A stretch of 61,362 nucleotides of DNA, counting the filler, from Malassezia furfur (Eukaryota): the NCBI GenBank assembly GCA_052055015.1. It is 9 parts of 9 records of this genome, joined end to end, with 100 filler letters (N's around TTAATTAATTAA, not from the genome) between each part and the next. Parts side by side here need not be neighbours in the genome. Positions count along the whole stretch, not along the records: positions 54,720 to 61,362 come from JBQJIT010000532.1; 8 more parts are not named here. One strand, written 5' to 3'. The notes beneath the pieces were generated by a model. The model made no database searches. It saw nothing but the letters and a program-made list of their open reading frames with translations, and was not told the origin of the DNA. Within the stretch, counting starts at the first letter, position 1; every line of letters begins with the position of its first letter. The translations under genes and the position numbers were made by a program. Shown piece by piece: positions 865 through 61,362 of the stretch.

Positions 865-2310
865 ATGCTCCGCCACGGTCTCGCCCACGTCCGTCTCACG
901 CTTGCGCGCGCACCTGTGCGCCCGGCCTGGCCCTCGGCGTGCCATGCCCCGGCGTTGGCCCGTGCTCACAGCACGCCTACCGGGCCCCCCACTCCGATCC
1001 CGCGGCATCGCGTCGTGATCGTCGGCGCAGGCTTCGGTGGAATGACGACGATCAACGCACTGCGTGGTGCGCCCGTCGATATCACGCTGATCGACCGCTC
1101 CAACTGCCACCTGTTCCAGCCGCTCCTGTACCAAGTAGGCACGTGCGATCTCGGCACAAGCGACATTGCGTGGCCCATCCGGCACCTGGTCGCGTCGCGC
1201 CCGGAAATCACCACGCTCCTCGGCGAGGTGGATAGCGTCGACAAACACGCACGCTTGGTGCACATCAAGGACGACGCCGATCCCATCCCGTACGATACAC
1301 TCGTCCTTGCGACCGGCGCACGCGACGCCTTCTTTGGGCACGACGAGTGGGAGCACATTGCCCCGGGGCTCAAGACGCTGCGCGACGCCACGACCGTGCG
1401 CCGACGCCTGCTCGTCGGGTTCGAGCTTGCAGAGCGAGTCGCCGATCCGGAGCTGCGCAAGTCGCTCATGACATTCACCATCATCGGCGGTGGGCCGACG
1501 GGCGTCGAGCTGGCGGGCGCCATTGCGCAGATGGCGCACCGCACACTTCCGCACGAGTTCCGGAAGATTGACACACGCGACGCACGCATCGTCCTCATCG
1601 AGGCCGGCACACGCGTCCTTAGCTCCTTCCCAGAAGATCTCTCGGCGTATGCCAAGCGCGCGCTCGAGGACCTCGGCGTCGAAGTCAAGCTGAACCAGCC
1701 GGTGTCGGACTTGCAGGTAGACCGCGTCGTCGCTGGCAACGAGACCATCCCGTGCTCGACCATCTTCTGGGCCGCCGGCGTCCAGGCGTCCGTCGCACAC
1801 CGCTGGATCTCCGCGCCGACCGACAAGGCGGGGCGCATCCAGGTCGAGCCGGACCTTTCGGTGCCGCACCACCCCGAGATCTTTGCGATCGGCGACACCG
1901 CCGCGGTGCACAACGCGGACGGCAGCCCGGTGCCGGGCATTGCCCCTGCCGCCAAGCAGATGGGCAAATATGTGGGGAAACTCGTGCGCAGCCGCATCCA
2001 TGGCGAGCCGGCGCCTGCACCGTTCCGCTACGTGGACATGGGCAGCCTCGCGACCATCGGCAAGAACAAGGCGGTAATTAGCTACAAGGGATTCAAGCTT
2101 CGGGGCTGGATCGCTTGGTGGATGTGGGGGCTCGCACACATTTACTTCCTCATCAGCGTCCGCAGCCGCCTGAGCGTCGCACTCAACTGGCTCTGGAACT
2201 TTACGCGCAACTTTCGCGCCTCTCGCGTAATTACGCAGGACCCGTTCCAGGACTTTCCCAAGGGCTTTCCGGAAAGCGTTTCGAAACGCCGCCAACGTGA
2301 GAATCCATAG
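865..2310 (+). CDS. ndh: Type II NADH:quinone oxidoreductase (NDH-2), bacterial-type, with a putative N-terminal mitochondrial presequence; intronless
   Basis: ATG at 865 (MLRHGLAHVRLTLARAPVRPAW..., Arg-rich, no acidic residues). Then VVIVGAGFGG, DRSNCHLFQPLLYQV, YDTLVLATGA, GGGPTGVELAG, FAIGD, PGIAPAAKQMG and a C-terminal WWMWGLAHIYFL membrane segment. Confidence 0.9.
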   Translation: MLRHGLAHVRLTLARAPVRPAWPSACHAPALARAHSTPTGPPTPIPRHRVVIVGAGFGGMTTINALRGAPVDITLIDRSNCHLFQPLLYQVGTCDLGTSDIAWPIRHLVASRPEITTLLGEVDSVDKHARLVHIKDDADPIPYDTLVLATGARDAFFGHDEWEHIAPGLKTLRDATTVRRRLLVGFELAERVADPELRKSLMTFTIIGGGPTGVELAGAIAQMAHRTLPHEFRKIDTRDARIVLIEAGTRVLSSFPEDLSAYAKRALEDLGVEVKLNQPVSDLQVDRVVAGNETIPCSTIFWAAGVQASVAHRWISAPTDKAGRIQVEPDLSVPHHPEIFAIGDTAAVHNADGSPVPGIAPAAKQMGKYVGKLVRSRIHGEPAPAPFRYVDMGSLATIGKNKAVISYKGFKLRGWIAWWMWGLAHIYFLISVRSRLSVALNWLWNFTRNFRASRVITQDPFQDFPKGFPESVSKRRQRENP

Positions 2311-2560
2311 CGGCGCAGCAAAGCTTGGCGAGGACCGCGCATAAACACGGCGAGACGTTTGCGCCAGCACGAAACACACGTTTATACGAGGAATGCCATC
2401 TATATCGTAGGATCCACGCTGCGCTCGAGCCTAGGGCACTCTGAACAGCCAGCGCCAGTGTCCTCCACCATGCCAAAATTCGATAAAAAGGCCCAATTTC
2501 CTCTGACTGTGGAGGCTCGCCCCGCATCCCTACCATGCCAAGCTCGACTTTCCTTCGCCC

Positions 2561-4095
2561 CTAGACACGCGCAAAACTACCTTGTTGCAGCGCTTCCACA
2601 ATCTCGGAGCGCCAACGAGCAATACGTTTCTGGTGTCCGGCCTCGAAAATTTGCATCCACGCTGGGTCAAAGGGAGGTAGTGGGCGTCCCGGTCCGTCAT
2701 TTCCTGCAAGGTTTCGAATCGTCTCGAAATACTCTTGAAACTCGGGGAAGAGGGCTGTGAATTTCGGACCATTGCCGCGCACCTTTATACGATCCATCTC
2801 CCACTGCTCTTGCTCAACTCGGGGAGGCAAGTGCGCTCGGCCGGCCAACACACGACTGGCAAGCACGGCCTGCCACTCGAACGCTTTAAAGGTCAATCCA
2901 GCGGCAATCTGCATGCGTTAGCAATAACGACACACGCATACGTACCGCTCCCACGAATGCCAAAGTAGAATCATTTATGTTGAATACGTGCAGATACAGT
3001 CCATTGACCCTGTTTCCATCCAGGCACAAGTCCGGCAAATAAGGATAGCTGTAGCGATAGCCTGTTGCAAAAATGATTTTGTCGACCCGGTTTGCCACAG
3101 AGCCATCGCGAAAATACACCGTGCGCTCTGCTGGCGCAATGTGGCTGATCTCGGAACGACGAACAATCCCGGGATGATTCAACGCTGCATCTCCAAAGAA
3201 CGGGTGAACGGTGCCTCGTGATGACGACACCACAGGCGACTTGGCCATGCCGATCAAGTCATGCGCGATGTCCATACCCGACACGGATGAACCGACTACG
3301 ACCACATTCTGGCATGAGCACGAGTGTGGTATACCTTACCATATTTCGATAATGCTCCCGATGCCGATAGTTTTTCGCATGTTCCACCGTAAAGGGATAC
3401 AATTGCTCGAACGCAGCCAGGCCTGGGATGTCGGGGAGGTTGGGCACATTGTAGTGTCCCGAGCACACGACAAGCGCATCAAAGCGCTCCTGCCACCAAT
3501 AATCAAGATCATCATCCGACCGCCGAAGGGTCAAGACCCATTCGGTACCCTGCTTCTCCGCTTTTTCAACCGTGGTGTTGTACTCAACCAGCTTCTCGTA
3601 GCCTTTTCGCTCACATAGGCTTTGGATGTATTGCTGAATCACGCTGTGGTGACGGAAGGGGGTCGTGGGACCATACGCGGCAATGGATGCCTCGGATCGA
3701 ATTTCTGGGATCGGCTCCTCGGTAAACTCCATGGCTCTGGCGTCCACATTCGACTCAAGGTAGGGATACGTTGGCGTATGTGCGTAACGTTCTTGCTGAC
3801 CTTTTTCCTTATAGCAGGGAAGTTTTTTCGGTAAATTAAGAGGCGGATCAAGTTGGGAGAGCTCAGCAATTCCTACAGGCAACCGACGCGACGAGGGGTT
3901 TTCGTCCAAAAGCCTAGAGTGTTAGCCTTTCCATGCACTAGGCCATACGTACCATACACCTCCAGCCTTTTCACGCCGCTCAAACACCTTCACAACGTCA
4001 AATGCCTTCTCGCGAACCAAGGAGTCAAGCGCAATGGCACCAGAGGGCCCAGCACCAATCACTGCTACACGCTGAACGTGATGCTCACGAGCCAT
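2561..4095 (-). CDS. Flavin-containing monooxygenase (FMO/thiol-specific monooxygenase-like), 4 exons
   Basis: MAREHHVQRVAVIGAGPSG...FERREKAGGVW, CSGHY, HAKNYR, VVVGSSVSGMDIA, IIFATGY, LAFVGA|IAAGLTFKAFEWQAV. Introns 3914-3952, 3309-3339 and 2909-2945 restore a continuous frame. Confidence 0.88.
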
Positions 4096-4522
4096 GTTTT
4101 GTAGCGTAGCAGAGGGGAACGCAGATACCTATCTGAAACACTATCCTTTAAACTTAGGAAGGGCATCCAGCCAATACAGAGGTCCACACTACAGGTGCGA
4201 CGGTCAAGAGCACGCACGTATCATGACGTGCTCTTGTGTGGAATTTTGCGACATCGTGGAGAAGCACGTGGCTGGAAGTAGGCACGGAGATCGAGTTCCT
4301 AGGTCGCCCCACAACCATTTTCTCCACACGCAATGCTCTCCTGCTTTATTTTGTCATTCATCAGCATCATGTGATTGACCTCACTCATTGTCCTTCTCAC
4401 GCAGCAACATAACATTTGCCCTATACCTACTCCATCTTGCGTGGTTTTGGCTAGATCCAGAAACACTTTATGTAATCTAGGAACACACTATCATCGGTAC
4501 GATGCACTCGTAATTGATCTAC

Positions 4523-6179
4523 TTAGACGTCACCAACCTTGTCTTTCACCGGCTCCATCCCTGCCATACGGGACTTTTGACGTAAACTTGCACCAAACTT
4601 GTAAAACATGGCAGTTATTGGCAGCAGCAAAAGTGCCAACCCGCCAAGAAGGCTGCATCCGCCCTGAATGATGAGCTTTTTAAACATTTGTGTGGAGAAA
4701 AGAGGAAATGCACCACCCGCTAATGCACGGAACAGTCCGTTGCTTGCATAGGCTGAAGCAGTATACACTGGGTACATTTCTCCCAAGTATCCAAGAAATC
4801 CCTGGAAAAGGAGAAATATGGCGCACTGGAACACTCCGTAGGCCGCGAGGGGTGCATAAACAGGTACACCAGAAAAGGATGTCCAGCCAAACTTTGTGAG
4901 TGCTTCACTATGCTAACGTACCCAAAAAAGCGAAATTGGAACTAAGACTCCACCGACAAAACACGCCTGCATTCTGTATTCCGGCTTCCACTTGCCTGAT
5001 TTGAACCACGGAAGGACAAGCCTTTGGTTGTAAATGCAATACAATATCAAAGCAACTGCGCACACGATCCAACCCGTCACGTAGGCACTGCTAGATTGAC
5101 CTAGTGAGAGTTGGTGGCGCCCCTGAAATGTCTGTTTGTAAGCAAAAATTCGAGGTTGTTTCGTACAAGGGGAAAGGCTTCAAAACTGTTGTTAGCAAGG
5201 GCTCAAACACATACAAGCAGTAGGTAATCCCATAAACATAGGTAATATAAAGGTTGCTAAAGAACAGAACGGGTTCCGTAAACGTCATGTGCAAGGGTCG
5301 AAACAGAGTACTGTAAGCAAGCTGGCTCAGTGTAAGCTGAGCGTCGCGGTCTTCCCCTCGCGAGTGAATGTTTGCGTTCCCGGTAATGCGGCGTAAGACG
5401 CGGGCCCGATGAGTGAGGATCGAATCCGCATTCGTCTCGGGCATGAAAAAGAAGGCAATGAGCCATGTGAGTCCTGTTCCACAGAGTAATGGCCAGATCA
5501 TCCAACGCCATCCTTTCTCCTGAACAGCAAATCCCGATAACAGTGGGCCCATTCCAGGACCACCGCATGCTGCATATGACCAGCATGCAATTCCATTCAT
5601 GAATCCTCCGTCAAGATTCCAAATGTCGCCCATTGTCGCACCCCCTGTAGCTAGAACAGGACTTTCAAGAAACCCAGCGATGAAACGCAAAATCATAAAG
5701 CCTGCGACGTTGTTGCATTGTGCCATGGGGATTTGCATAATGACAAATAGCCCAATACTCACAACGTATGGCCAATTGCGGCCAATGCGGGCAACCTCGG
5801 TAATAGGTGATAGGATCATCGGCCCGAGTCCATAGCCCCATACGAATAGAGAAATGCTCAAGGAGGAGGCGGTTTCCGATATGCCGAACACCTCGCTGAA
5901 TTCAGGAATGCCTGGTACAACGATACTGCTTCCAAGATACACAAACACCGTCATCAAGCAAACCAGAAATGTCACGAAACATTTGTAGAGAAAAGGCCAG
6001 TTTTTGGGATTTTCGGGATCATCGTCTCCGTTCCAATCCACTTAGAGACTCTCTTGTGTACCAAAATAACTTGGTGGTTTGCTCTTTCCCTGCACGATGC
6101 TCTTCTCAAAACGCGTCTTGAACAAATGCTGACCACTAACCAAATACACCACGTTACCGAAAGCAGTGGTAGCAAACAT
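4523..6179 (-). pseudogene. DHA1-family MFS drug:H+ antiporter, otherwise intact but with one in-frame TAA at codon 46
   Basis: ATG at 6179 (MFATTAFGNVVYLVSGQHLF...QESL), TAA at 6042-6044, then VDWNGDDDPENPKNW, GYGLGPMILSPITE..IGR, PEYRM, SLFW|FGWT, YTASAYASNGLFR. Introns 5186-5214, 5132-5166 and 4892-4921. The family call is firm; pseudogene status is less certain. Confidence 0.65.
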
Positions 6180-6760
6180 AGGAGTCGGTCAGTTTGCGTG
6201 AAACGCAAATATTGGCTAGTCTCGGACTAGTAGGAGCCACCACTTTTGAAGTAGAGCTGTCATTTATCGGACTCATTGGAGTAGCACGGCAGCGGGGTAG
6301 GATAGCCAATGTGATCATGAACTTCGGCGTTAACTAAGGTTTCCCTGTCTTTCTCAATGACGCAATTCTCTCAGATGTTACATAAACGCAATCTGCATTT
6401 AGTGAGTCTAAATTTAGCTCGTCCAATAAACATTTGCGCATCGACAGAAATTATTGCACATATCCATAACGAAAAGTAGTCTTTACTATACACGATGATT
6501 GATTGGAGGAAATGGAGGGAATTTTGCGTGAAACGTGCAACGTAGGTAGGCGTACCCTACACCATGTGGTTACGGAGTTAGACTATCGCCGGGACGAAAT
6601 GGGAGCGCGGCCTCGGATATTGGCTAACACCGCAAACGTTTCGGGAGATAGAACAATAATCAATGTTGGCGCGCAAATAGAGATTGTTTTGGGGTGGAAC
6701 GTCTGTGTTTGACAAGAGCATAGCGTAGCTTTCATTTTTGGCTGTTTAATTCTGACATGA

Positions 6761-6833
6761 ATGGGAATAGGAATAGGAATTAGGATTAGGATTAGGATTA
6801 GGATTAGGATTAGGATTAGGATTAGGATTAGGA
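6761..6833 (+). repeat. Telomeric repeat array (TTAGGA)9 preceded by degenerate ATGGGA/ATAGGA units
   Basis: Nine perfect TTAGGA copies at 6780-6833 run to the contig end with the G-rich strand pointing outward; variant units at 6761-6778. Confidence 0.88.
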
Positions 6834-6933
6834 NNNNNNNNNNNNNNNNNNNNNNNNNNNNNNNNNNNNNNNNNNNNTTAATTAATTAANNNNNNNNNNN
6901 NNNNNNNNNNNNNNNNNNNNNNNNNNNNNNNNN
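6834..6933. other. Artificial contig linker
   Basis: N44-TTAATTAATTAA-N44 (stops in all six frames). Confidence 0.98.
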
Positions 6934-7526
6934 ACGCCGCAGTGTGATCTTGTGCGGCTTGGGCGACTCGGCGCGCTCCTCTTTGGGCACGCTGCTCTTG
7001 GCGACCGACTCGGCGAGGCGCCGGCGCTTGGCGTCTGCCGCGTCATCCGGCGCACTGCGCTTCTCGGCCTTTGTTTCGCCCGCAAGCCATGCGTCGTACA
7101 CGTCGGCACTCGCCTCCTTGATCACCGCCTGGGTCAGTGCGCTCCACTTACATGCAAGTCGCGCGCCTGGAGCCAAATTTCGCTGTCGCGCATATTAAAC
7201 CGTTTCGCGTTGTTGCAGATCAGCTCAAAGTCGTGCTTGACGTCCGAAAACGTCGTGTACTCGTGCTGCTTGAGCCGCGTCTTGATATCCGTGAGCGTCA
7301 TGGGCTTCTTGATCACCACGTAGTATTCGGGGTACTGGCGCCGGCTGGGCAGGCGCATGAACGGCTCCGCCAGCGCAACCCCCTCGCGGTCCTTGGCGCG
7401 CAGCACACGCTCGAGCATCTGCTGCCCCATTTTCGTGACCTGCTCGACGGTGGGCACGGGCGCCTCCGACCCCGTGCTCCGCCGCGCGCTCTTGCGCACC
7501 TCGTCCGGCTTCGCGGCGATCGTCAT
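6934..7526 (-). CDS. Bromodomain protein (RSC/polybromo-like), 3'-truncated by gap
   Basis: LAEPFMRLPSRRQYPEYYVVIKKPM...DFELICNNAKRFNMRDSEIW. A 23-nt intron 7129-7151 (GTAAGT..CTGAC.CAG) joins it to the downstream frame. Confidence 0.8.
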
Positions 7527-45186: not shown

Positions 45187-46290
45187 TTACGAGCTGCGCG
45201 ACGAGCTCGACCCCTTGGACTCGTCGGCATCGTTCGAATCGCTGTCGTCGCTCCCTCCGGGCACTGGCAGGTACTGCGATATCGCATAGAGGTCGAGCGT
45301 GCCGTAGGTGCACAGGACGATGGTGAGCGCCAGGTCGGGCAGGACGCAAAGCACCTGGAAGACCTCGACGCTGAAGTCGTACACGGTTCCCGTCTGCCAT
45401 GTTGCACCGACGACGATCAGGAACACGCACTTGATCGTCAGCAGCGATACGATCACGGCGAGGATCATCACCATCTGTGTGAGCAATGCCACATACCGTA
45501 TTCAGCTGCTTGTAGGACACCGGCATGGGCCGCTCGCTCCACTGCCCCTCGAGGTGCTCCGATGTGACAGCGCCCGACAGGAACTGCGACTTCAGCCGGC
45601 GGTTCCGGACGAGGGCGATGACGACGGCGATCCAGAGGCCGAGGAAAAAGGCGAGGAACACCATCCAGGTGTACCAGTACTTTCCCCAGCCCGCGATGCC
45701 GATCATCGTGAGCGCGGTCACGAGCACGAACGCGATGAACGCGGGATGGTACACCGACAGGCCGAACGCGCGCTTTTCGTAGCAGAGATTTGCGAGGCGC
45801 ACCCTGGGTGAGGAAATCGACGTACCAGCGCGCATACAGCAGGAAGACGAGGCACAGCTGTGCGGACATCGCGACTGTGTACATGATCAGCATCACGTTT
45901 TGGTACCCGTCGAACCCGACGGCGAAGCCGATGAACTCCACTGCGTGGTGAGCCGAGATACGTACGCAGAGTGGACAGGAGGAGGAAGCCGTATTCGAGC
46001 TTGGCGCGGCGCCGGAAGATGTAGTATGCGATGACGAGCGACAGGATGCCGAACAGGCACGCGAAGCTCACGAGGCCCGTGTCGCCGAGGCCAAACGTCG
46101 AGTCGTAGCACTCGTCGCGCGACCAGACGCACATCGTCTGCTTGCCGACCGCCTGCGCACTATCAGGGCCCTGGCCCACGAACCCGCGCGTGGGGCCGGC
46201 GTTGGTGCTTACGGAGCGCGAGTAGGTGACCGCATCGCGTGAACGTGCGTATGATGACCCAAAGTCGTATGGGCCGAAGCTGAGCGACAT
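45187..46290 (-). CDS. Multi-pass (~7 TM) membrane protein, weakly RTA1-like
   Basis: Introns of 25, 22 (45804-45825) and 22 nt (45475-45496) join four ORF-track fragments into one hydrophobic protein (LLEFIGF..., FQVLCVLPDLAL). Family assignment is tentative. Confidence 0.7.
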
Positions 46291-57443: not shown

Positions 57444-58073
57444 ATGGCGAGCGACGCGCGTGCGGTGGGCGCGGAAGCGAGCGTACCGGCGCCATCGAGT
57501 GCATCGGTACGCCCGACGGCGGAGAGCAGCGAGGCTGCACCGACACAGCAGGAGCTGCAGTTTGCGCGTGCCACCTACATAATCCTCGCAATGTGGCCGG
57601 CGATGCGCCAGGCCGTACTCGAGATGTGGGGTGGCCCCGAGTCCGAGGAAAAGCGCGACTTTTTGCTGTCGCACCTGTGTGATGAGTACGGCACGGGGAA
57701 GGGGAAGCTGCCAGACATGGACGACCTTACGGACCTGCTGGAAAACTACCTAGCCGAAGAGTACGACTGCCAGCTCGAAGACGACAGCGCGGCGCTCGTG
57801 GCACTCCATGTGTGCAACACGTACAAGGCCGTATTTGAGGAGCAGCACGGCACCGAATTCCTCAAGCAGCTTGAGGAAGCGTTTGCTAAGGTGAGCAAGT
57901 CGAGCGTCAAGAACCAGACACAAGAGCTCTCCGAGGATGACGACGCGGAGGAAGAGGATGCGCCCGACGTAGCTACACCTGCCACCTCTGCCCCGCGCGC
58001 ATCTGCGCCGCGGCCCGAGCCCGAGATTGACGAGGACGGCTTCGAGACCGTAGTGAGCCGCCGCCGGCGTTAA
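57444..58073 (+). CDS. TSR2: Pre-rRNA processing protein Tsr2 (WGG domain)
   Basis: WPAMRQAV..MWGGPESEEKRD, EEYDCQLEDDS, DEDGFETV. Confidence 0.92.
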   Translation: MASDARAVGAEASVPAPSSASVRPTAESSEAAPTQQELQFARATYIILAMWPAMRQAVLEMWGGPESEEKRDFLLSHLCDEYGTGKGKLPDMDDLTDLLENYLAEEYDCQLEDDSAALVALHVCNTYKAVFEEQHGTEFLKQLEEAFAKVSKSSVKNQTQELSEDDDAEEEDAPDVATPATSAPRASAPRPEPEIDEDGFETVVSRRRR

Positions 58074-58115
58074 TTTCGTAGCTCCTCCACTTGCCCCCAC
58101 GCGCCGCTGCGCGCG

Positions 58116-60884
58116 ATGGACGACGAGGCGGACGCGTCCTCGCTGTTCTTCCACGCGAGCCAGTCATCCAATGCGTCAGGTGAGCACCCTAGGCGCCTGG
58201 CACACCTTGCGGCGTCGTTCAGACTCACCGACGCCGAGATCGCCTTCTTCGATGCGGTCGTTGCGTCGCTGCCCGACGCTTCCGACGGCTTTGGGCATCT
58301 GAAGCGCGCGTACGATGCGCAGATGCGCGTGCCAACACTGGTGCACTCCGTCGCACGCGCACTGGATGTTGGACCAGACGACACAACGGCGGTCGATGCG
58401 CGGCTATGGAATACGCTCCTTGCGCTTGTCCAGGTGCGAGGCCATACATGGGCGGAGCGTTGGGATGCCGTGCGCGTTTCGCTGGGACTTGACCCTTGGG
58501 TGTCGGATGAAGACGACTCTTACTCGATGCATGAGCTTACGCGTGCGCTGCAGACACCGGCCCCGCCGGCGCACACCCCGGGGCCGTCGGCATGGGCACA
58601 GTACGATGCACCCTCTGCAACATACTCCCCTTGGTCGTCGCCGCGCAGCGTGTCGAGCGGCGATACTCACGACATTCCAAGTTCTCAGTGGATGCAACGC
58701 AGTGCTTCGCCGATGCGTGTTGGCGAGCTACAGCGTGCGCCGCTACCGACCGCGGCGTCGCTCGCATGGACCCCACACACGGCCCGCAGCAGGACGAGTC
58801 GCTCGCTGTATAGCAACGTGTCTGATGACGAGGTCGATGCGCCCTATGACTGGCGCGCTGCGCGCCGTTTAGGTACTGCCGAGGCTTGGAGTGCTACCCG
58901 TCTTCTCGGCCGCATGCTCCATCATTGGCGCACGGCGCTCCAAGCACGTCACGAGGCGATTGCTGGTGCAGCTCGAGCACACGACCGGTGTGTGGTGTCG
59001 CAGTGCCTGACCACCTGGCGCACGGCAACAAAGCAGGCAAAAAAGCGGCGCATGCTCGCTGCGGCGTATGCGGACCGTGCGCTGCTGCACCGCGCATGGA
59101 CTCACTGGGCGCGCCGCTGGACGGCGCTTCTCGATTCGCGGCGCGCCGAGCATCGCGCTATGCTGCGTGCGGCGTTTTACGAGGTGGAAACCCGGCGCAG
59201 CCGAGCGATCATCGCCGTTGCATGGACGGTATGTTGCTGACTTACCTAGCTCTGGCGCCAAGCGAGCGATCGGCACCTTGCCACGGCTGTTTGTGCCGCA
59301 CGGAGGAAGCAGGCGGCATTTGCAACCTGGCGTGCGCGGTCTGAAGATGCACGGGTACTGTCGGAGCGTGGTGCGGCTTTCCGTCGCCGTCGTGCACAGC
59401 GTACGCTACGCGATAGGTGGATGCGGTGGGCACGGCGCACCGAGGATCGCCGTGCACTCGCTGTGGCTACCGAACAGCGCCACATGCGGCAACAGTACAC
59501 AGCGTGGTCGACATGGCGCACGCGCCTTGCCCATGTCCGAGCGCTGGACGTGCGGGCCGAGGCGTGGGCCGACGCTGCTGCGCATCTGCATCTGCGTGAC
59601 ACGCTGCGCCGCTGGCAACTGCGTACGCGTGCGGCGGACGCTCTGCGTGCAGCAGATACACAGATTGTGCAGGCAGCATGGCGGACGTGGTGGGTCCGCT
59701 TCACCGAGCGCACCGTCGCCTGGCAGGGTACGTCGCTTCCTCACACAGACTATCAGGCGAACGCCGAGGCACAATGGGCGCGGCGGCGCACCGAACGTGC
59801 CTGGACGCACTGGGCGCAGCGCACCGCACACTGGGAGCGACAGGCGCAGTACGCGGTACGCACGCATGCGAAGCGGATGCTCTGGGCCGCGTACGTTCAG
59901 TGGGCTGCGCGCGCGCAGGCTCATAGAGAAGCGGCGCTGCGTGCGGACGCAGCTGCGCGGCTGCGTACGCTGCGTGGCGCATGGCGGCAGTGGCGCTCGG
60001 CGCAGCAGGCGGCGCACGCACGCCGCTTACGCGCTGCGCATGCAGCGCGGCTGCGGGGCGACGTGTTCCAAGCGTGGCGCTTGCGTGCCGCCCAGGCACA
60101 GCACTGGCGCACTGGCACCGCGCTACTCGAGGCGCAGACCGCCGCGCGCGTCCAGCGGACGTTCCTGGCACAGTGGCTCCGCCGTGCGCGTGCGCGTCGC
60201 ACTGCGTACCTGGAGGCGGCGCAGCATGCCGACACGCAATGTGCTGCGCGCGCCCTGGCGCACTGGCGCGCTCGGTGCCGCACCGTGCGTGCGCACACGG
60301 GCATGGCGGATGCCTTGCGTGCCGCTTATGACCAAGGTACGTGGCCGACTCACCAGACCGTGCACGGCATGCGTTGCATACTTGGGTACGTGCGCACCGG
60401 CTTGGTACGCTCGAAACCGCATGGAAAGCGGCGCGCGACGGCCACAGGCGCGCCGCGGCCTGGGAGCAGTGGCGCGACGCGTTGGCGCATGCGGCGCTCT
60501 CGTACGAGGTACGTGCGACGCTCACGCCAGGAATATGCGACGCTTGCAGCGCGGCGGCGGTGGATGCTGCGCCGCTGCTTTGCGCATTGGCTCGGCCGCA
60601 CGAGTGTGTTGCCTGCCGTGGAGCACCGGCGGAGCGCATTGCAGGCCCACGCGCTGCGCCGGTGGGTGGACAGGCTGCGTGCGCGGCAGCGCGAGGCGAC
60701 CGCGCGTGCGTTTGTCCAGGCGACCGTGCTGCGCGATGCACTCGCGACGTGGCGCGCCAAGCGCGCGTACCTCGCCGAGTTGCGTGCCGTCCAAGGCCTA
60801 CACACACGCGCGCGGCGCACCTCGTCGGACACGCACTTTCGGCGGCGGCTTGCGTTTGTGGCGCCCACGGCGCGTTTCTCGTAG
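58116..60884 (+). CDS. SFI1: Spindle pole body half-bridge protein Sfi1 (Trp-periodic centrin-binding repeats)
   Basis: Many A-x7-L-x3-[FW]-x2-W[RK]-type repeats. Introns 59229-59249, 59728-59748, 60337-60356 and 60509-60530 give a continuous repeat protein. Confidence 0.82.
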
Positions 60885-60889
60885 CGGCT

Positions 60890-61362
60890 CTACTTACGCG
60901 AGACATGGTACGAGCTCGCCTGGTTCGTCGGCAAGATGAGCACGTCGGCGATGTTGACGTGCGGCTTGCGACTCGCGGCCCACACGACCTCCTCAGCAAT
61001 GTCTTCGGCGGTGAGCGGCTCGATGCCCTCGTAGACCTTATCAGCGGCAGACTGATCGCCGCGGTAGCGCACAAGGCTGAACTCGGTCTCGACCATGCCT
61101 GGCTGGATCTCGCTCACGCGGATCGCCGTATCGACCAGCTCCATGCGCAGTGCAGTGGTGAACGAGTGCAGCGCGGCCTTCGACGCGCAGTACACCGATC
61201 CGCCCGGATACGGATTCACCCCCCCGATGGAGCCGAGGTTGATGATGTGACCCGCGTTGCGCGCCTTGAACTCGCGCACGAACTGCTGCGTGATGTGAAT
61301 CAGGCCATGCACGTTGGTGTTGAGCATGCGGTCGATCGCGTCCGGCTTGACGTCGCCGACGC
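60890..61362 (-). CDS. Classical SDR, YdfG/YMR226C-like NADP-dependent 3-hydroxy acid dehydrogenase, 5'-truncated
   Basis: NTNVHG, INLGSI, YPGGSVYCASK (YxxxK), IQPGMVETEFSLVR, PLTAEDIAE. Confidence 0.88.
   Translation of the reverse strand, partial: VGDVKPDAIDRMLNTNVHGLIHITQQFVREFKARNAGHIINLGSIGGVNPYPGGSVYCASKAALHSFTTALRMELVDTAIRVSEIQPGMVETEFSLVRYRGDQSAADKVYEGIEPLTAEDIAEEVVWAASRKPHVNIADVLILPTNQASSYHVSRK

Follow-up and report, generated by a model that had tools for sequence, protein, structure and literature searches.

Genes of the genus Malassezia have been described as carrying 'very short introns' (PMC7426719). The accessible part of PMC5389616 gives 5350 introns for M. sympodialis, with a mean length of 30 bp and RNA-seq support for 99% of them; in M. 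restricta the median intron is likewise 30 bp (PMC9241646), and this species has been annotated with minimum intron lengths of 15-20 (PMC9241646; PMC6473144). Elsewhere among eukaryotes, Paramecium introns average 25 nt, according to the accessible part of PMC8997360, and the accessible part of a 2026 survey (PMC13644364) names ciliates (Stentor, with 15-16 bp), Microsporidia and dicyemids as lineages with introns of < 30 bp, to which it adds myxozoans, whose median is 22 bp; Malassezia is not named among them in that part of the survey. In the literature searched, no study of the lower length limit or of the branch geometry of Malassezia introns was found, nor any paper on SFI1 in this genus. 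Here we analyze a 21-nt element in the SFI1 orthologue of the skin yeast Malassezia furfur, located at positions 59229-59249 (plus strand) of a 61,362-nt stretch of the assembly GCA_052055015.1 (referred to as the window), which had been predicted from the sequence alone to be an intron. We consider it highly likely, from comparative sequence evidence, that the element is a genuine U2-type GT-AG spliceosomal intron and the first of four in SFI1.

The role of Sfi1 in centrin binding and in spindle pole body duplication comes from work on Saccharomyces cerevisiae (PMC2173958) and Schizosaccharomyces pombe (PMC4161509), as presented in the accessible parts of those papers. The original prediction had leaned on SFI1 being essential in yeasts; this holds for budding and fission yeast according to the same parts of the same two sources, and the basis of the statement is that work, not work on Malassezia.

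Results

The 21-nt element and its reading frame

The segment reads GTATGTTGCTGACTTACCTAG and lies in frame between two collinear open reading frames (ORFs). A scan of the window placed the stop-to-stop ORFs at 58074..59240 and 59250..60884 in one common frame, which the ATG-started ORF at 59421-60884 also shares; because both stop-to-stop ORFs are in the same frame, the reading frame that runs from the ATG at 58116 to the terminal stop codon is interrupted by no stops but the TGA and the TAG within the 21 nt (Table 1). The prediction of a 21-nt element with two in-frame stops, linking the ORFs 58116-59240 and 59421-60884, is therefore present in the window exactly as it was made. Excision of the element joins ...AIIAVAWT to LWRQASD..., and the model from which all four predicted introns are removed has a length divisible by 3, a single terminal stop and a product of 894 residues. 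The pattern GTATGTN{4,12}CTNACN{0,6}YAG, to which the element conforms, occurs twice in the window where chance would give 0.08 occurrences, and none of 100 shuffles reached 2.

The interruption was also present in other assemblies of the same lineage. In the cluster of 374-residue ORFs, three members were examined (P0014, P0078 and P0080; a fourth, P0079, was left out), and all three end in ...AVAWTVCC, directly before the TGA. The TGA within the 21 nt is thus not an assembly accident.

Identity of the gene and fit to the Sfi1 repeat

Homology identifies the gene as the SFI1 orthologue of M. furfur, in agreement with its original assignment. The downstream ORF matched the Pfam family Sfi1 (PF08457) with 27.5 bits (cut-off 22; E = 1.5e-6), exon 1 alone remaining below threshold at 19.4 bits, and the closest database proteins were from Malassezia, several of them named 'Sfi1 spindle body domain-containing protein' with a precomputed PF08457 match. 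The database matches included no transcript-derived protein that was both nearly identical and of matching length. The start of the protein, MDDEADASSLFFHAS, matches M. furfur and M. brasiliensis proteins. Across its aligned length the spliced model is identical to the M. furfur protein CBS9595_000826 at 833/833 residues, and it is collinear with the M. furfur protein GLX27_001207 (894 aa), with identity at 705/893 aligned residues. M. furfur has two parental lineages, P1 and P2, with CBS 9595 and CBS 14141 as their respective representatives and an overall similarity of 89% (PMC9040865); given the complete identity to the CBS 9595 protein, the window is therefore P1-type M. furfur.

The predicted product contains about 20 repeats, whose conserved tryptophans lie 25-34 residues apart except for one spacing of 42. 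Repeats of the Sfi1 family follow one another at intervals of about 23-35 residues. Their consensus, as given in the accessible part of PMC2173958, is AX7LLX3F/LX2WK/R, and the product of 21-nt splicing fits it as I365 I366 xxx W370 xx W373 R374. Excision would fuse codon T371 to L372 and so rebuild the fourth Sfi1 repeat, with the core AWTLWR; the W-x-x-W repeat that the original prediction expected from excision is therefore recovered, and the protein has six further AWxxW cores.

Comparison of the junction with homologues

The exact boundaries were examined by comparison with homologues. In a MAFFT alignment the window model exhibited a clean 7-column gap relative to homologues that read through the site, and no gap relative to intron-less ones. 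A census of the junction, taken from the best high-scoring segment pair spanning it, covered 47 proteins with a match out of 60. In 12 Malassezia-type homologues AWT, ALT, AMT, AWK, AWM or AWS is followed directly by LW; approximately 20 longer, more distant homologues also have no insert, although for these repeat-level orthology is not assured in a repeat protein. The metagenomic DNA loci of relatives, all ten from intron-less species, were contiguous at the junction in 10/10 cases (...TGG ACN / YTN TGG..., the slash marking the junction). The public M. furfur protein GLX27_001207 (P0062, WFD46570.1) reads AVAWTLWRQ and is collinear with the model at all four junctions. Residues A369 and T371 are at least 90% conserved (alignment A1). 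The predicted join of AVAWT to LWRQ is thus matched by intron-less homologues, by metagenomic DNA and by a public protein.

A second set of homologues, comprising 6 in the census together with P0026 and P0081, continues with V (codon GTN) after AWT or AFT at the junction. The ORFs of the window's own lineage, which end in ...AVAWTVCC, are of this V-continuing kind. Three full 7-residue inserts were found: VRRRLTQ in M. furfur P2, VRVALTQ in M. obtusa and relatives, and VGFSSHQ. Q is the last residue of each, and by the genetic code all of them would be compatible with a translated GT...CTNAC...CAG sequence. The remaining V-continuing homologues shift frame or end early, as would be expected from an intron of another length at the same site. 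We infer that the position of intron 1 is common to a subgroup of these homologues.

The closest counterpart is the orthologous intron 1 of the P2 lineage, represented by GLX27_001207, which shares the gene, the AVAWT/LWRQ junction, an 894-residue product and four matching intron positions. Its length would be 21 nt, judging from the seven-residue read-through in CBS14141_001125, and the genetic code implies at least 4 base differences from the window's 21 nt. Unlike the window copy it has no in-frame stop (VRRRLTQ), whereas read-through is impossible in the lineage of the window.

A class of very short introns in the window

Short elements of the same design are abundant in the window. The pattern GTACGTN{4,12}CTNACN{0,6}YAG has 28 matches against 0.11 expected, a number reached in 0/100 shuffles, and the wider form GTAYGT..CTNAC..YAG yields 30 elements on both strands against about 0.2 expected (28 GTACGT and 2 GTATGT), approximately 1 per 2 kb. 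They measure 20-29 nt with a median of 23, a range set in part by the pattern, which can find only 18-32 nt. By length there are 1 of 20 nt, 5 of 21, 6 of 22, 5 of 23, 1 of 24, 4 of 25, 5 of 26, and 1 each of 27, 28 and 29 nt. In this motif-defined set 20-23 nt is the commonest intron size, and the original presentation of the intron as remarkable does not stand.

Splicing of the class was assessed by the G+C content at third codon positions (GC3), which reports the reading frame. Among the 23 matches whose length is not a multiple of three (non-3n), the GC3 frame changes across 17 in the way expected of splicing, and 3 have the appearance of unspliced sequence; where the GC3 signal is clear on both sides, 14/15 fit splicing and 0 speak against it. 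When hexamers upstream of branch motifs were scanned irrespective of donor sequence, GTACGT was found 28 times, GTGCGT 3 times, and GTACGC and GTATGT 2 times each, against 0 at a control distance; GTAYGT accounts for 30/66 of the GT hexamers lying 15-21 nt upstream of branch motifs, again with 0 at the control distance.

The geometry of the class is narrow. The last A of the branch motif always lies at least 15 nt from the 5' G, and exactly 15 nt in 8/30 matches; in 21/30 it is 5 nt away from the 3' end. Given the 15-nt minimum and the usual 5 nt to the 3' end, a 21-nt intron represents the class at its smallest, and the 21-nt matches have CTNAC at intron positions 13-17 in 5/5 cases. In intron 1 of SFI1 CTTAC occupies these same positions, and its A shows the distances typical of the class, both to the 5' G (15 nt) and to the 3' end (5 nt). 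A second branch-like motif, CTGAC, was rejected as the branch site: its A, at 59240, comes within 11 nt of the 5' end, whereas 30/30 motif matches keep to at least 15 nt.

Elsewhere in the window, a predicted membrane-protein gene on the minus strand (45475-45965) carries three introns of 22-25 nt within approximately 500 nt, and the GC3 frame fits splicing for all three.

Alternative explanations

Several observations count against the 21-nt intron as proposed. The GC3 frame test gives a weak signal on both sides of all four SFI1 introns, in repeats rich in Arg, Ala and Trp; the class to which the intron is assigned is defined by motif; GLX27_001207, the public protein that agrees with the model, may itself be a prediction; and the 42-residue tryptophan spacing (W331-W373), larger than any other in the protein, falls immediately before the junction repeat. 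To these is added a public annotation of the same lineage, CBS9595_000826 (P0077), which lacks exactly VAWT plus the 21 nt.

This last model corresponds to an intron of 33 nt (59217-59249) with the donor GTTGCA and the same acceptor, giving ...RAIIA/LWRQ..., an alternative that the original prediction had itself named as capable of refuting it. The 33-nt variant is in frame, and its I-x-x-W-R keeps a hydrophobic residue at position -3. As the main product we nonetheless regard it as unlikely. M. restricta proteins served to train the Augustus web server that produced this annotation, and RNA data were not used (PMC9040865); CBS9595_000826 also translates intron 2 and leaves out exon 4. The VAWT positions are kept in all 12 intron-less Malassezia-type homologues, including the strongly conserved A369 and T371, and in all read-through homologues the GTN codon sits after AWT or AFT. 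As a donor GTTGCA is at noise level, with 1 occurrence against 28 of GTACGT in the donor-agnostic scan, and with its use the LL of the consensus would be replaced by S and R and the repeat would be spoiled. The 33-nt form may be used to a minor extent alongside the main product.

The two stops within the 21-nt intron raise the idea of regulated retention, in which incomplete splicing would limit Sfi1 dosage through nonsense-mediated decay or a truncated N-terminal isoform. In its favour there is only the logic of a premature stop in an intron whose length is a multiple of three (3n); the amount of Sfi1 matters for spindle-pole duplication in yeasts, as far as titles and the opening lines of abstracts indicate. 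It is nevertheless very improbable: the orthologous P2 intron (VRRRLTQ) has no stop, and only 2/7 candidate 3n introns of the window, in frames assigned by GC3, contain one. Because of these two observations the stops of intron 1 look incidental. The same 2/7 count led us to reject the broader proposal that stops in 3n introns serve to guard against retention, although the frames come partly from GC3 and are uncertain.

It is just as hard to maintain that there is no splicing at all, and that the locus is a broken gene or two genes, a 374-residue N-terminal protein and a repeat protein starting at an internal ATG such as 59421. ORF callers do report exactly such pieces (P0014, 374 aa; P0001, 466 aa). 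In all orthologues examined, however, both halves belong to a single protein; the interruption, 21 nt with full splice signals, would arise by chance 0.08 times per window; and the downstream part needs two more frame-shifting introns that homology confirms. A broken gene is further opposed by the absence of other lesions seen and by the complete identity to the CBS 9595 protein.

Finally, an assembly error, or read-through of the stops with the 21 nt translated as seven residues, can scarcely be credited: the public models CBS14141_001125 and MOBT1_000581 do translate the orthologous 21 nt (VRRRLTQ and VRVALTQ, respectively), but in the window translation would have to pass two different stops, the TGA was present again in 3/3 ORFs that were examined in other assemblies, neither the 12 homologues nor the 10/10 DNA loci have the seven residues, and these would interrupt the repeat core.

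The other introns of SFI1 and the public gene models

Because the GC3 signal is weak in SFI1, homology was used to place its introns, and the predicted introns 2-4 are confirmed by homology to the M. brasiliensis and GLX27 proteins and to intron-less homologues. Intron 2 is read through as GTSLPHT in P0001 and P0077, and as the orthologous GTSLSHT in P0002; it is absent from the M. brasiliensis protein P0003 (VAWR/DYQ), from the GLX27 protein P0062 and from all intron-less homologues. Only with intron 3 removed does the frame read DRARHALHTWVRAHR..., as it does in P0003 and P0062, and the junction left by intron 4, ...ALSYE/EYATLAARRRWML, agrees with both of these proteins and with the intron-less homologues. 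Introns 3 and 4 (20 + 22 nt) shift and then restore the frame, such that a 544-residue false ORF stays open across the hidden 50-residue exon; ORF callers and two public annotations either miss exon 4 or misread it.

The public SFI1 models of the M. furfur group disagree with one another (P0002, P0003, P0075 and P0077), and among them only GLX27_001207 is collinear with the intron-less orthologues. CBS14141_001125 and the M. obtusa model MOBT1_000581 translate intron 1; CBS9595_000826 (KAI3625465.1, 840 aa) combines the 33-nt intron with a translated intron 2 and a missing exon 4; and M. brasiliensis MBRA1_001031 is without approximately 300 residues.

Table 1. Window coordinates of the predicted SFI1 gene model and of the sequence elements at its first intron
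Feature	Position	Strand	Description
SFI1 orthologue	58116..60884	+	5 exons, 4 ultra-short introns, predicted 894-aa product; stop codon included in coordinates
Exon 1	58116..59228	+	371 aa; conserved N-terminal domain and first Sfi1 repeats; ends ...AIIAVAWT
GTTGCA, rival donor	59217..59222	+	33-nt intron 59217-59249; used by CBS9595_000826
Intron 1	59229..59249	+	21 nt, phase 0, GT-AG, two in-frame stops
GTATGT, predicted 5' splice site	59229..59234	+	Minor variant of the window's GTAYGT donor
CTGAC, second branch-like motif	59237..59241	+	Probably unused; A at 59240 just 11 nt from 5' G
In-frame TGA	59238..59240	+	Inside intron 1; ends 374-aa unspliced ORF; P0014, P0078 and P0080 end in VCC
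CTTAC, putative branch site	59241..59245	+	Branch A 59244 = intron position 16, 5 nt before 3' end
TAG, predicted 3' splice site	59247..59249	+	Doubles as second in-frame stop
Exon 2	59250..59727	+	Spliced model
Intron 2	59728..59748	+	21 nt, phase 1, GTACGT..CTCAC..CAG, without in-frame stop
Exon 3	59749..60336	+	Spliced model
Intron 3	60337..60356	+	20 nt, phase 1, GTACGTGGCCGACTCACCAG; shifts frame
Exon 4	60357..60508	+	About 50 aa, two Sfi1 repeats
Intron 4	60509..60530	+	22 nt, phase 0, GTACGTGCGACGCTCACGCCAG; restores frame
Exon 5	60531..60884	+	Stop codon 60882-60884

Neighbouring observations

SFI1 is tightly packed between its neighbours. On the upstream side 42 nt separate the end of a TSR2-like gene (Pfam WGG) from the SFI1 ATG (58071-58116); on the other side the minus strand carries, in convergent orientation, a short-chain dehydrogenase gene (Pfam adh_short), whose ORF end lies 5 nt past the SFI1 stop (60882-60892). 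This is an extreme degree of gene packing. Because these ORF ends are only 5 nt apart, the 3' ends of the two transcripts probably overlap.

In the 90%-identity cluster of M. furfur Sfi1, one entry (P0064) is a 38-residue fragment labelled as coming from a metagenome-assembled genome of Trebonia sp., an actinobacterium, which suggests that this bin is contaminated by fungal sequence.

At approximately 2000-7000 the window contains a GC trough, down to 0.38 at 6501-7000 against about 0.65 elsewhere, where candidate introns are longer and carry CTAAC. Malassezia centromeres have been described as short AT-rich GC troughs.

Discussion

Intron 1 of SFI1 would consist of little beyond its three signals: the donor GTATGT, a 6-nt spacer, the CTTAC branch motif, and the acceptor TAG ending 5 nt on. 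Because TGA and TAG both stand in the reading frame, an unspliced message would yield only a 374-residue N-terminal fragment, and excision would permit translation of the full 894-residue protein, a predicted centrin binder. The sequence, the frame, the boundaries relative to intron-less orthologues and the membership of a large and uniform class are read directly from the DNA and the alignments; removal by the spliceosome, with CTTAC as the branch site, and the requirement of this removal for the full-length protein, are what we infer from them. Very probably the intron is correct rather than surprising, tiny introns being normal in M. furfur and having a published precedent in the genus, and neither the current understanding of splicing nor that of Sfi1 is changed by it.

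The consequences are mainly for annotation. The gene model is corrected: the lineage's public SFI1 (840 aa) appears to use a wrong 33-nt intron, to read through a second and to lose an exon, and the models of the sister lineage and of M. obtusa render intron sequence as protein. ORF-based and default gene callers fail in Malassezia in that stop-free 3n introns of 20-22 nt are invisible to them, while pairs such as the 20- and 22-nt introns keep a long false ORF open. With its minimal intron architecture (15 nt plus 5 nt), this genetically tractable yeast could also serve studies of how introns close to the physical minimum are processed by the spliceosome.

We further propose, tentatively and with slightly less than even confidence, that intron size in the M. 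furfur lineage has reached a hard architectural floor of 20-21 nt, at which donor, branch site and acceptor are read as one composite element of about 21 nt. Such a floor may be built from the donor hexamer, a stretch between the 5' G and the branch A that cannot fall below 15 nt, and a further 4-5 nt leading from this A to the 3' end. If this were true, the space would not suffice for U1 and the branch-site factors to be placed next to each other as in the textbook picture; a transformable yeast would stand among the shortest-intron eukaryotes outside ciliates and nucleomorphs; and SFI1 would be a natural reporter, with four floor-sized introns, one of them impossible to read through.

At the level of the protein, the window Sfi1 resembles S. 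cerevisiae Sfi1p, S. pombe Sfi1 and human SFI1, which likewise have a central array of about 20 repeats with the core [F/L/W]xxW[K/R], a conserved tryptophan at intervals of 25-34 residues and the PF08457 match; outside the repeats it has diverged strongly from all three, and its function in Malassezia is putative. The N-terminal domain (..ARLWNTLLALVQVRGHTWAERWD..) is kept only among fungal homologues within the set retrieved (Malassezia and longer, more distant proteins).

At the level of the intron, the nearest relatives are those of M. sympodialis and M. restricta, in the same genus: GT-AG introns of tens of bases, numerous, in compact genomes of 7-9 Mb. The motif-defined set of the window (20-29 nt, median 23) is shorter than the values published for these two species, a rough comparison given that the pattern finds 18-32 nt only. 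The introns of Paramecium, Stentor, Microsporidia, dicyemids and myxozoans are likewise < 30 nt and likewise made of splice signals and few spacer bases, but their origins are independent of those in M. furfur, whose class differs from them in combining a strong, yeast-like GTAYGT donor with an explicit CTNAC at a fixed 5 nt from the 3' end.

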